Shown here piece after piece: positions 4,514-36,113 of a stretch of 64,000 nt of DNA (positions are counted from its first letter, which is position 1; every line of letters begins with the position of its first letter). This stretch comes from Escherichia coli (lineage in GTDB: Bacteria; Pseudomonadota; Gammaproteobacteria; Enterobacterales; Enterobacteriaceae). A program made the position numbers and the translations under genes. The DNA lies in assembly GCF_022846255.1 (NCBI RefSeq), contig NZ_AP025682.1. One strand, written 5' to 3'. The notes beneath the pieces are model-generated. The model saw nothing but the letters and a program-made list of their open reading frames with translations. It did no database searches and was not told where the DNA came from.

Positions 4514-4589
4514 TGGTGCTGGTTAACGGACTTGAACCGCTACCCATTCGCTTACAAGGCGACTGCTCTACCATTGGAGCTAAACCAGC
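4514..4589 (-). tRNA. tRNA-like gene, anticodon TGT (Thr) by manual folding
   Basis: Cloverleaf: acceptor GCTGGTT/AACCAGC, D-arm GCTC/GAGC, anticodon loop CTTGTAA, T-arm AGCGG-TTCAAGT-CCGTT, encoded CCA; one mismatch atop the anticodon stem. Confidence 0.55.
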
Positions 4590-4594
4590 ATATT

Positions 4595-4669
4595 TGGCGG
4601 GACAGCGTGGACTCGAACCACGATAAGAAGGTTAACAGCCTTCCGTAATGACCTTTATACGACTGACCC
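4595..4669 (-). tRNA. tRNA-like gene, anticodon GTT (Asn) by manual folding
   Basis: Anticodon stem GAAGG/CCTTC, loop CTGTTAA, T-arm CGTGG-TTCGAGT-CCACG, encoded CCA; acceptor and D stems each have one mismatch. Confidence 0.5.
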
Positions 4670-15663: not shown

Positions 15664-15885
15664 ATGGCGGACATCATTGATTCAGTATCAGAAATTGAAG
15701 AATTACAGCGCAATACAGCAATAAAAATGCGTCGTCTGAACCACCAGACTATATCTGCCACTCATTGTTGTGAGTGTGGCGATCCGATAGATGAACTAAG
15801 ACGTCTGGCCGTTCAGGGTTGTCGGACTTGTGCAAGTTGCCAGGAAGATCTGGAGCTTATCAGTAAACAGAGAGGTTCGAAGTGA
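15664..15885 (+). CDS. TraR/DksA-family C4 zinc-finger protein
   Basis: 73 aa with CCECGDPIDELRR...CRTCASC four-Cys motif. Confidence 0.6.
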   Translation: MADIIDSVSEIEELQRNTAIKMRRLNHQTISATHCCECGDPIDELRRLAVQGCRTCASCQEDLELISKQRGSK

Positions 15886-16091
15886 GCGAAATTAACTCTC
15901 AGGCACTGCGTGAAGCGGCGGAACGTGCAATTCCAGCAATGGAACGCCTGTTAATGTTGCCAGCTGATGATGATTTGTTAAGTGAACAGGAACTTAAAGA
16001 TTACGGTGTGGATATTGATGCGCTCAACGCCTTCAAATTTCTGGCCGGACCAGAAACCGTGCTGGCACTGCGCCGTCAGGAAGTTTTTTAG
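15882..16091 (+). CDS. Hypothetical acidic protein, last gene of the pL operon
   Basis: 69 aa, GTG start overlapping the TraR-like stop, so likely translationally coupled. Confidence 0.5.
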   Translation: MSEINSQALREAAERAIPAMERLLMLPADDDLLSEQELKDYGVDIDALNAFKFLAGPETVLALRRQEVF

Positions 16092-16120
16092 TACGATCAA
16101 TGGTTAACTCAACTCTCATG
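16034..16120 (-). CDS. Candidate 28-aa ORF downstream of the LexA-box promoter
   Basis: Strong SD GAGGAGGG 5 nt before ATG; MRVELTIDRTKKLPDGAVPARFLVRPEI; antisense to the 3' end of gene 15882..16091. Confidence 0.25.
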
Positions 16121-16138
16121 ATTCCCTCCTCATTGATT

Positions 16139-16189
16139 TACTGTGTGAATATACAGTTACTTTATAAACCTCTCATTTGGATTTTGCAA
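16139..16189 (-). promoter_or_regulatory. Putative LexA-repressed promoter
   Basis: Minus strand TTGCAA, 17-bp spacer, TATAAA, then TACTGTGTGAATATACAGTT on + (CTGT-N8-ACAG) covering the predicted start site. Confidence 0.5.
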
Positions 16190-16223
16190 TGTTTTAAGGG
16201 CACGAATTGCGAATAACCCTATA

Positions 16224-16256
16224 CAAAAAAACCCGCCGAAGCGGGTCTTATCTTTC
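16224..16256. terminator. Bidirectional intrinsic terminator
   Basis: AAAAAAA-CCCGC-CGAA-GCGGG-TCTTATCTTTC; strong U-tract for minus-strand transcripts, weaker for the plus-strand pL operon. Confidence 0.6.
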
Positions 16257-16257
16257 A

Positions 16258-16431
16258 TTAATGCTTAGTCCTTACAGGAAAAGACCAGCATTTATATCCG
16301 TATGCGTGTGCATCCAAAACTCGGCGCTCTGAGTCAGGCGTCCCAGCTTTAGCTCGCGCCCTGCGATAACGACATTTTACCCAGCGGAAACCATCCGGAA
16401 GTTTTTTGGTAGGAATTTCTTTCAAAGCCAT
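16258..16431 (-). CDS. Candidate 58-aa basic ORF
   Basis: ATG with GAGG 7 nt upstream; MALKEIPTKKLPDGFRWVKCRYRRARAKAG...; below the ORF-track size cutoff. Confidence 0.2.
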   Translation of the reverse strand: MALKEIPTKKLPDGFRWVKCRYRRARAKAGTPDSERRVLDAHAYGYKCWSFPVRTKH

Positions 16432-16580
16432 AAATAAACCTCGTTCCAGGCGAGCACTTCCCTGAAACTTGATAAAAATATGGGGATCCGCTAATGTACT
16501 GTTGTTGACGCAGTACTGATTGCGGGTGCTCTAACATCCCCAATCCGAGCCCTTCCCCGGCAAAGGAAGGGCTCAAATTC

Positions 16581-17111
16581 TTATGAAGGCTTCACATACG
16601 CCTTCAAAATCGACATAATACGCTCAGCTTCTTCCATCGTGATGTTGGTAGGCAACCCCTGAACTGTAATCATTGCCCCTGTTTCAGGTCGAACAACGAT
16701 CGGTAAATTGAAAGTCTGCACTTTCTCATGTCTTGCAGCTTTAGCTTTCTCCATCTTCTGCTCCACCGCATCAAACCCATCTAAATTTCCTTCGGTGTCT
16801 GCCAAGTTGACTAAAGTCCCCACTCGCGTGTACTCCTCAAACTTATTGACAGCACTTTTAAACCGGCTTCGATAATTATGAATGGTGGATTCACTGGGCT
16901 TGTTTGCCTGAGTTTCAGCATAACGAGTAATGAGGTCTTCAACGTTCAGGTCGCGCACATCATCGTTGTCACTCGTGTCGACCACAGATAACAGCAGCAA
17001 CGCAGAATTTTTTAAGTTGCGAGCTGTTGCTTCGTTGATCAGCCCCAAGTTAGGCAACTTCATAAGAAAATCGAAGAATGCTTGCGTTGAGTAATTATCG
17101 TTCATAAGCAT
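16581..17111 (-). CDS. Hypothetical protein, 176 aa, no recognisable family
   Basis: ORF track; ATG start; hairpin GAGCCCTTCC...GGAAGGGCTC just after the stop. Confidence 0.6.
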   Translation of the reverse strand: MLMNDNYSTQAFFDFLMKLPNLGLINEATARNLKNSALLLLSVVDTSDNDDVRDLNVEDLITRYAETQANKPSESTIHNYRSRFKSAVNKFEEYTRVGTLVNLADTEGNLDGFDAVEQKMEKAKAARHEKVQTFNLPIVVRPETGAMITVQGLPTNITMEEAERIMSILKAYVKPS

Positions 17112-17156
17112 CTCTCATTGTTATCCATAGGTGTAGTGTAGATTCAGAGGTTTTAC

Positions 17157-17196
17157 CGATCAATGTTTTTTTTATCGATCGATCAATCTTTTTTTA
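17157..17196 (-). promoter_or_regulatory. GATC-clustered direct repeats in the leader of the 176-aa gene
   Basis: Three GATC within 27 bp; two copies of CGATCAAT each followed by a T-run, 45-85 bp upstream of the start codon. Confidence 0.35.
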
Positions 17197-17337
17197 AATC
17201 TAACCAATCCCACCCACTTAAAAACACTCAACAACATTTCACCCCCTCAGAAACAAAATAAAATAAACTATATAAAACAACAAAATACACAGATCTATAA
17301 AACAGACAACCGCCCCCGCCTCCCCCACCCCATACTG
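17186..17337 (-). repeat. Strand-asymmetric tract: G-depleted on +, G-rich on -
   Basis: About 6 G in ~150 nt on +; minus strand has GGGGTGGGGGAGGCGGGGGCGG (17310-17331) and further G-runs. Confidence 0.45.
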
Positions 17338-17407
17338 AATTTAGATACAGCCTTAGTTAATCAACCTTCGTTCACCAGAGCAGCACATATGCCTTCGGAC
17401 TTTTTAG

Positions 17408-17995
17408 TTAAGCCACAAATGGCAGTTTGCACAGTTCTGGTAGATTTGCCCTTACCAGAGCCTCCGCGAATTGTGGAGGTACGGCATTTCCGCATCTGGC
17501 GACCTGTTTATCCTTCGCATACTTCACGCCACGATAATCTTGGTCGATGATGTACCAGTCCGGGAAGCCCTGCGCCCGGTACAGTTCACGCGGCTGTAAC
17601 ATGCGCATACCAATATCAACAATGCGATACGTCACGCCATCGATCACCACCAGCCCGGTACAATCCTCGCCACAGTATTTACGCAGGAACGACAGCGTTT
17701 GTTGCGCGCGTTCTTCGTCGTACTCATCTACGGCAAGATGGGTTTCAACGTTCCCTACATGCAGGCCACCAGCCGTGACAGTCGGCATTGGCGCGTCGGT
17801 GCGTTGTCCATCCCGGCAGGTTCCGCGCAATTTAACCAGGTGAGAAGCAACCACAGCATGGTGATCGACGGTGGTCACAGAATGCATCGGCTCATCCATC
17901 CCCACTTCGGCAATAAACCGGTAAAGGTGTTCGCGATAAAGGTGAATATCAATGACTAAATCAGCAGCAGAAAGCAAAAGAATTTTTAGGTACAA
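17408..17995 (-). pseudogene. Remnant of a DNA cytosine-C5 methyltransferase (C-terminal part only)
   Basis: Motif IX-like RMLQPRELYRAQGFPDWY and motif X-like ARCGNAVPP present; no FxGxGG or PCQ motifs; ORF opens only with TTG. Confidence 0.6.
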
Positions 17996-35807: not shown

Positions 35808-35895
35808 GCGTCATTCCGGAAGTGTGGCCGAGCGGTTGAAGGCACCGGTCTTGAAAACCGGCGACCCGAAAGGGTTCCAGAGTTCGAATCTCTGC
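35808..35895 (+). tRNA. serT: tRNA-Ser (anticodon TGA)
   Basis: GGAAGTGTGGCCGAGCGGTTGAAGGCACCGGTCTTGAAAACCGGCGACCCGAAAGGGTTCCAGAGTTCGAATCTCTGCGCTTCCGCCA, long variable arm. Confidence 0.95.
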
Positions 35896-36113
35896 GCTTC
35901 CGCCAAATAAGATAAGGGGTTAGCTAAATGCTAACCCCTTTTTCTTTTGCCTGTCGAAATTCTCAGGGCGTTATATCACTGCCTAATGACCTGAGACTCC
36001 GCTGTGAAACTTGTTTCAGATCAAATGCGTAAAGATGGGTAAAACTTCTGTGTACCTTCCCACATTATCATTATGCTGCTTCATTAATAACATCTGTCAT
36101 AGAGAGTGACTCA

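Follow-up and report, generated by a model that had tools for sequence, protein, structure and literature searches.

Within the window analyzed here, the whole 64,000-nucleotide stretch of Escherichia coli DNA, the ORF at 16258..16431 on the minus strand (57 codons plus stop; translation MALKEIPTKKLPDGFRWVKCRYRRARAKAGTPDSERRVLDAHAYGYKCWSFPVRTKH) is, all evidence considered, probably best explained as a genuine gene of the family phrog_33859, located distally in a mobile cassette beside the stump of a dinI gene, with a match between the two that goes no deeper than a short amino-acid motif. Comparison of homologous sequences showed that this ORF is a protein-coding gene for a small basic phage protein under strong purifying selection. 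An identical protein is deposited as BDH33979.1 ('hypothetical protein [Escherichia coli]') and occurs on 86 contigs.

The protein is a fresh member of a known, uncharacterised PHROG family: its whole length aligns with the phrog_33859 profile HMM (residues 1-57 on positions 1-57 of 57, E = 3.8e-35), and three of its homologues likewise match this profile. Family alignments place in it the phrog_33859 core, ..G[FYW][RK]W..CR[YF]R[RK]...LDAH.YGY..W.F.V., and residues A41, Y44, G45 and W49 are invariant across 56 sequences of the small-protein family; the aromatic residues W17, Y44, Y46, W49 and F51 of the 57-aa protein were also reported as invariant. Ten close homologues were found, and a profile search of 1.84 billion representatives returned 43 distant ones, nearly all of 42-97 aa. 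The loci fetched for the small ORF (51 on viral contigs and 27 genomic; ~90 related loci overall) include, among the genomic ones, loci from Atlantibacter, Proteus, Erwinia, Morganella, Vibrio, Photobacterium and Xenorhabdus as well as from Acinetobacter, Psychrobacter, Idiomarina, Pseudomonas, Accumulibacter and Neisseria.

Conservation of the reading frame, which the preliminary description had proposed as a check, turned out clearly positive. In all ~90 fetched loci, from Gamma- and Betaproteobacteria, the small ORF is intact, without frame-breaking indels. With the window allele as reference, synonymous sites are saturated and dN is 0.06-0.27; the median dN/dS is 0.06 (0.03-0.10), with values of 0.04 for codons 15-54 and 0.27 for codons 2-14, and the substitutions are conservative (F/Y, R/K, V/I). 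Each of these features argues against the alternative that the ORF is untranslated and the region is kept solely as RNA (a leader/terminator transcript) or as DNA, and so does a confident AlphaFold model of the protein. This alternative could appeal to the structured RNA in the leader upstream of the ORF and to Rfam small RNA and leader models that match 16225-16375, although these matches are sub-threshold and driven by the terminator; overall, we consider it very improbable.

The Shine-Dalgarno sequence GAGG, 7 nt 5' of the ATG, is located where the preliminary description had seen it (16439..16442, minus strand), and a purine-rich block is kept at this position among relatives. Directly 3' of the ORF, at 16228..16249 (minus strand), lies an intrinsic terminator, GACCCGCUUCGGCGGGU followed by U7, and a terminator is present after the stop of the small ORF in every relative, with compensatory changes in the stem. 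No sigma-70-like promoter for the small ORF was found. We share the doubts expressed earlier about the overlapping 75-aa ORF at 16349-16576: relatives do not conserve it, their open stretch in this frame ranging from 6 to 88 codons. A 33-aa ORF at 16157-16258 (minus strand), which overlaps the terminator hairpin and is annotated in public assemblies (L097-L103), is most likely a gene-calling artefact.

By composition, the 57-aa protein is basic and hydrophilic, without a hydrophobic stretch, and it is predicted to be mostly beta in the AlphaFold model, for which pLDDT was 85.5 with 56 sequences vs 61 with 9 sequences. Searches of Pfam, NCBIfam, PADLOC and PDB sequences with this protein gave zero matches, a fold search of the model against PDB and BFVD yielded no match, and for Pfam Arm-DNA-bind_1 to _5, the integrase arm-type DNA-binding domains, there was neither a profile nor a fold match. 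A tblastn search against phage GenBank records produced a single match, in an unannotated record, and a literature search on the sequence motifs of the family found no papers. Two other identities were considered and rejected. A frameshifted dinI pseudogene does not fit, the other two frames being without convincing DinI-like sequence and the ORF itself being conserved, and neither does an SOS-induced type I toxin (TisB, DinQ, HokE), the protein being no short hydrophobic transmembrane peptide.

The upstream partner of the small gene is a 176-aa gene at 16581..17111 (minus strand) that belongs to phrog_2602 (E = 5e-66). At their N-terminus, proteins of this family have an integrase SAM-like domain, PF02899 being hit by 3 of the 19 members (best E = 1.5e-4); a conserved domain of ~40 aa, LPI.LRP..G..TI.G.P.DLT.EEAERI..ILK.Y, follows at the C-terminus. 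The cassette runs from the 176-aa phrog_2602 gene through a hairpin and a ~150-nt leader to the Shine-Dalgarno sequence with the small ORF and on to the intrinsic terminator. When 93 loci were compared, the gene immediately 5' of the small ORF was a phrog_2602 gene in 46, an M78 peptidase gene in 36 and another gene in 11. In the M78-type loci, the peptidase, of ~173 aa, is preceded by an HTH gene, and the pair matches the capP and capH models. Derivation of phrog_2602 from a degenerate M78 peptidase was rejected (hhalign probability 0.1%).

Seventeen of the fetched loci have a dinI gene downstream of the small gene, either immediately next to it or separated by a single gene, and in lambdoid prophages the cassette is usually located just 5' of the SOS-regulated dinI. 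The closest relative found is that of Atlantibacter subterranea (L069), with 91% identity in the small protein and 90% in the partner. Among 5,426 RefSeq complete E. coli genomes searched with window positions 15880-17120, none contained the cassette of the 176-aa and 57-aa genes, and the host flank of the window is ordinary E. coli (the appA-appB region is 99.9% identical). The module consisting of a Dcm fragment, the 176-aa gene, the 57-aa gene, the dinI stump and an Ea22 fragment occurs unchanged in at least two phage backbones. The 195-aa ORF at 17408-17995 (minus strand), at the upstream edge of this mobile module, is a DNA cytosine methyltransferase fragment (PF00145 is found in the equivalent genes of L097 and L098) and appears to be truncated. 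Elsewhere in the window, tRNA-Thr(TGT) and tRNA-Asn(GTT) were located at 4514-4669 (minus strand), in the prophage part, and tRNA-Ser(TGA) at 35818-35905, in the host part.

The second ORF of interest, of 28 codons, had been placed at 16034-16120; the ORF exists, with coordinates that are one off, its true position being 16033..16119 on the minus strand (28 aa, MRVELTIDRTKKLPDGAVPARFLVRPEI). As judged from its homology, it is a stump of a truncated dinI pseudogene, not a small gene. DinI (PF06183) is an SOS-induced modulator of RecA encoded by E. coli and by many lambdoid prophages. The stump, at 16060..16119 (minus strand), comprises the first 17-20 codons of prophage DinI, MRVELTIDRTKKLPDGAVPA, to be compared with the DinI N-terminus MK[IV]ELTIDR[TM]KKLPDGA[LVI]PAL, as established by blastn and by alignment to the dinI gene of L069 and to E. 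coli Ea22; the DinI homology ends after codon 17-20. A Pfam search with the 28-codon ORF gave no match, the complete DinI domain of ~75-80 aa with its acidic C-terminal helix being absent. With blastn, 16090-16600 matched only annotated DinI genes, and these in their promoters and 5' ends; their products start MKIELTIDRMKKLPDGALPALESELL... The promoter retains a canonical LexA box, TACTGTGTGAATATACAGTT (CTG-N10-CAG, 16139..16158), located 20 nt before the dinI ATG and also kept 5' of intact dinI in L013 and L069. The window and the A. subterranea locus are colinear from the small ORF through the terminator and the LexA box to the start of dinI, up to ..GGCGCA.

On the opposite strand, positions 15882..16071 hold the 5' fragment of an Ea22-like gene (plus strand; positions 1-72 of the 139 in profile PF13935). 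Plus-strand megablast homology to Ea22 genes stops at 16069-16071, i.e. at the junction with the dinI stump, and for its final 8 codons the 28-codon ORF reads Ea22 sequence in antisense. Because the homologies of both genes end at one junction, the convergent Ea22 and dinI genes have each lost their 3' part. The junction of dinI (minus) and Ea22 (plus), at 16060-16072, shows ~12 nt of partial microhomology, TGCTGGCACTGC. An identical junction was observed in a different phage backbone (L098-L103), indicating that the composite module moves as a unit.

The stretch shared by the two ORFs, which the preliminary description had located at codons 8-14 of the longer one, is real, with 17 of 20 nucleotides identical over the 20-mer given there. 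Copy A consists of codons 6-14 of the 57-aa ORF (16391..16414, minus strand; TCCTACCAAAAAACTTCCGGATGG, encoding ..PTKKLPDG) and copy B of codons 8-16 of the dinI stump (16073..16096, minus strand; TCGTACTAAAAAACTTCCTGACGG, encoding ..RTKKLPDG). In the best local alignment, the copies are identical at 20 of 24 nucleotides and at all seven amino acids of TKKLPDG; they repeat in direct orientation at a distance of 318 nt, and each lies in the reading frame of its ORF (codons 8-14 vs codons 10-16). The alignment score of 28 compares with 17.5 ± 2.2 in shuffled sequences, a score of 28 being reached by 1 of 300 shuffles. The match is thus modestly above chance for this pair of regions, though it was found post hoc.

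The evidence has for the most part shown that this match reflects a short amino-acid motif, T-K-x-L-P-x-G, and, as far as sequence comparison goes, it appears not to stem from a duplication of DNA and does not point to a single family. Neither interpretation of the match offered earlier is supported. Membership in a shared small-protein family is disfavoured by the identity of the 28-codon ORF as truncated dinI and by hhalign probabilities of 3.6% for DinI vs the family of the 57-aa protein, where a 9-column 'tk.lp.g' match was aligned (P = 0.012), and of 0.3% when the broad family alignment was used; no Pfam hit to the DinI domain (PF06183) was obtained in the 57-aa ORF at E <= 1. A short duplicated segment is not needed, since third codon positions of the shared stretch agree in only 3 of 7 cases, so that the nucleotide identity follows from the identity of the encoded amino acids. 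There is also a parallel: between the unrelated allele GTKELPKG (L005-L008, loci without dinI in the DNA fetched) and RTKELPKG, the DinI allele of L021, 19 of 24 nucleotides and 7 of 7 amino acids are identical. Near residue 10, T-K-x-L-P-x-G occurs both in the N-termini of prophage DinI proteins and in the long branch of the small-protein family, and the window allele happens to share K and D at the two variable positions of the motif with DinI.

Two explanations that involve dinI more directly were weighed against this motif-level reading. Under micro gene conversion, ~20 nt from the 5' end of a dinI (the neighbouring copy, in the same orientation and 318 nt downstream, or a different allele) would have been copied into codons 7-13 of the small ORF, creating TKKLPDG. 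Such an event would account for the uniqueness of the window allele, given that relatives have TKPLPAG, TKPLPPG, TPELPAG, TKELPKG, TKEAPPG and similar sequences and that K10 and D13 occur in the window allele alone among all fetched relatives; for the change P10K, which requires 2-3 nucleotide changes within one codon; and for the uneven divergence from the closest orthologue, that of L069, at 13 of 39 nucleotides (33%) in codons 1-13 vs 9 of 132 (7%) in the remainder. A dinI with RTKKLPDG is, moreover, found directly downstream in both the window and L069. However, the tract differs from the adjacent dinI at 5 of 24 nucleotides, including 4 of 7 third positions, and none of the 16 dinI alleles examined is closer to it; residues 4-13 are hypervariable family-wide, in keeping with the contrast in dN/dS given above; and the 7 of 7 match of TKELPKG arose in L005, without dinI in the DNA fetched. 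We therefore regard conversion as rather unlikely.

Less probable still, in our assessment, is an ancient shared origin, whereby the first ~15 codons of the small-protein family would have been captured from the 5' end of dinI by module shuffling. The motif is indeed located at a like distance from the start in both proteins (residues 8-14 vs 10-16), is preceded in both by an alternating hydrophobic pattern (aLKeI and rVELTI) and coincides exactly with the columns aligned by hhalign, and the two genes are frequent neighbours. Nevertheless, the hhalign probabilities are low with either alignment, AP-x-G stands in place of LP-x-G in the short branch of the small-protein family, and the upstream regions are unrelated, with a LexA box 20 nt before the ATG of dinI vs a 150-nt structured leader.

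This leader carries a covariation-supported RNA element that is absent from Rfam. The element, at 16478..16544 (minus strand), is conserved, spans ~66 nt and folds into three nested helices according to RNAalifold, pair counts and a covariance model. In P1 (UGGGGAU/AUCCCCA), 99% of the alignment cells are paired and three pairs covary (UA to CG in 8 sequences, GC to AU in 4 and in 2); in P2 (CCGC/GCGG), 99% of the cells are likewise paired, with one covarying pair (GC to AU in 8 sequences); P3, the apical helix predicted by RNAalifold (GUACUG-N9-CAGUAC), corresponds to the palindrome TACTG-N9-CAGTA at 16497-16515. The RNAalifold consensus was built on 19 diverse leaders. For the whole leader structure, none of 500 shuffles reached the observed covariation score; sliding the partner columns of the leader alignment reduced pairing from 90% to 34-46%; and the window leader has a folding z of -4.5. 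A candidate pseudoknot between the internal loop GAGCAC and the hairpin loop GUGCUC is 91% paired, without two-sided covariation. Alternatively, the functional form of the leader could be single-stranded DNA or a protein operator instead of RNA.

The covariance model R1, a core of 65 positions, scored 81.9 bits at 16478-16544 on the minus strand and found one copy per locus in all enterobacterial loci of the phrog_2602 type. On loci outside its training set, R1 scored 22 bits (E about 1e-3) in Aliidiomarina, Idiomarina and Ningiella and gave a marginal match in Endozoicomonas (15.3 bits, E 0.1-0.9). Each of these copies lies 50-130 nt 5' of the small ORF; the P1 helix is retained, reading AGGAAU/AUUCCU in Aliidiomarina and taking similarly A-U-rich forms in the others. 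There was no match of R1 in M78-type loci. When Rfam 15 was searched with 16432-16580 at E <= 10, nothing credible emerged, the sole hit being a miRNA model with E = 6 that we took as noise.

The element is flanked by two further hairpins. The one right after the stop of the 176-aa gene (16543..16578, minus strand) is 98.7% paired and has two covarying pairs and an invariant U-G pair, which fits the minus strand alone; since it is without a U-tract, it is probably not a terminator. Given the lack of a U-tract in this hairpin, and with no promoter found for the small ORF, co-transcription with the 176-aa gene is the simplest reading. The other hairpin abuts the Shine-Dalgarno sequence (GUUUCAGG...CCUGGAAC, 16443..16468, minus strand; centroid fold), with 73% of cells paired, the pairs being partly kept and some of them covarying.

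The M78-type loci (L005, L009, L050-L059, L066, L072-L075) have a different conserved leader between the M78 gene and the small ORF. It contains a hairpin, GGUGAUG...CAUCACC, with covarying arms and a loop, CCAAGAGG, that is complementary to CUCUUGG, a sequence just 5' of the Shine-Dalgarno sequence in these loci; two-sided compensation was observed for this pairing (CUAAGAG/CUCUUAG in L052 and UCAAGAG/CUCUUGA in L075), and a local alternative partner, CAAGGGA, is available. From these complementarities, this hairpin could be a translational switch.

With respect to SOS control, a LexA box with the spacing CTG-N10-CAG was not encountered in the promoter region of the 57-aa ORF itself. The palindrome TACTGCGTCAACAACAGTA (16497-16515) was considered as a second LexA box and rejected: its spacing is CTG-N9-CAG, not N10, and its arms behave as an RNA helix. 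Most close enterobacterial relatives retain N9 even though the spacer itself varies in sequence, and in more distant loci the palindrome at this position is spaced differently. Farther upstream, a LexA-like box, TACTGAATTTAGATACAGCC, is found at 17333-17352, ~240 nt 5' of the 176-aa gene (CTG-N10-CAG, 15 of 20 positions matching the consensus), with a like box at -227 to -253 in L069, L013, L018, L019, L021 and L024; owing to its canonical spacing, this box may place the whole cassette under SOS control. Just downstream of it, an ORF of 29 codons that starts with GTG (17239-17328, minus strand) would yield a highly hydrophobic peptide, MGEAGAVVCFIDLCILLFYIVYFILFLRG; its likeness to the toxins TisB and DinQ is superficial, and this ORF, not being conserved in related loci, is probably spurious. 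At ~17150-17205, an operator-like inverted repeat, GATTGATCGATCGAT-A8-CATTGATCGG, overlaps a plausible promoter of the 176-aa gene (-35 TTGATC, 17 nt, -10 TACACT). The arms of the repeat covary among relatives (CATCGATC/GATCGATG, GCCGATC/GATCGGC), which suggests a site for a dimeric regulator, possibly the SAM-like protein itself.

Comparison with known systems reveals partial likenesses. Like DinI, the 57-aa protein bears an N-terminal T-K-x-L-P-x-G, and its gene is often next to dinI; unlike DinI, it has no DinI domain (the Pfam and hhalign results are given above), no LexA box of its own and no acidic C-terminal helix (..QETWESADEWFY), and it is strongly basic and, by model, mostly beta. 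The cassette resembles lambdoid morons in that it is compact, ends in a strong intrinsic terminator and occurs in different phage backbones at varied sites, namely by cI, after the Ea22 region and upstream of dinI, the last of these being next to genes that in other phages neighbour dinI within the rusA (nin) region; it differs in having two genes and a long, conserved, structured spacer. Small basic phage regulators that bind structured leader RNA include lambda N, which acts on nut boxB, and Mu Com, which acts on the mom leader. By analogy, the 57-aa protein may be compared with these in its small size, its arginine-rich segment and the adjacent conserved hairpin RNA, although it shares no sequence or fold similarity with them and has no Com-type zinc finger.

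The arrangement is also reminiscent of the DNA-damage switches made up of an HTH repressor and an M78 metallopeptidase (CapH/CapP of CBASS, ImmR/ImmA of ICEBs1 and DdrO/IrrE), inasmuch as such a pair is found directly 5' of the small gene in the M78-type loci; in the window, the partner is instead phrog_2602, unrelated to M78. HTH and M78 modules of the CapH/CapP type are described as derepressing genes after DNA damage in passages of bioRxiv 10.1101/2022.04.27.489752, and in these passages no mention of a third small protein in CapH/CapP systems was found. The M78 proteins of the small-gene loci, of 173 aa, match only positions 9-148 of the 242-position capP profile and, accordingly, appear to be without the C-terminal part, the site of the GAF domain in CapP.

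The basic, aromatic-rich composition of the 57-aa protein, together with the structured leader and the fixed place of its gene by DNA-binding or damage-sensing regulators and dinI, suggests a nucleic-acid-binding role linked to DNA-damage-responsive regulators. The protein may bind nucleic acid through its Arg-rich strand, RWVKCRYRRARAKAG, and its aromatic residues, and would be an accessory of DNA-damage-responsive regulatory modules, with the structured intercistronic leader presumably controlling translation of the small ORF or mRNA processing. On a more speculative note, to which we attach low confidence, the small protein and the 66-nt leader could form an undescribed regulatory or effector module of mobile elements that was recruited by two unrelated partners, the SAM-like-domain protein and the CapP/ImmA-type M78 peptidase, and that would be induced by damage, the protein binding nucleic acid and possibly its own leader; the motif shared with DinI might then reflect a common interaction, e.g. 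with the RecA filament or a protease adaptor.

The similarity that drew attention to this locus thus marks neither a repeat nor a new small-protein family, one of the two ORFs being a pseudogene stump. The other belongs to a family of small proteins from prophages and islands of Gamma- and Betaproteobacteria that is without a Pfam model or a detectable structural relative. In 82 of the 93 loci, the small gene immediately follows a regulator-type gene of one of two kinds, the DNA-damage-sensing M78 peptidase type being one of them. The leader RNA and this wiring to two partners offer leads on how mobile elements couple DNA damage to gene expression.
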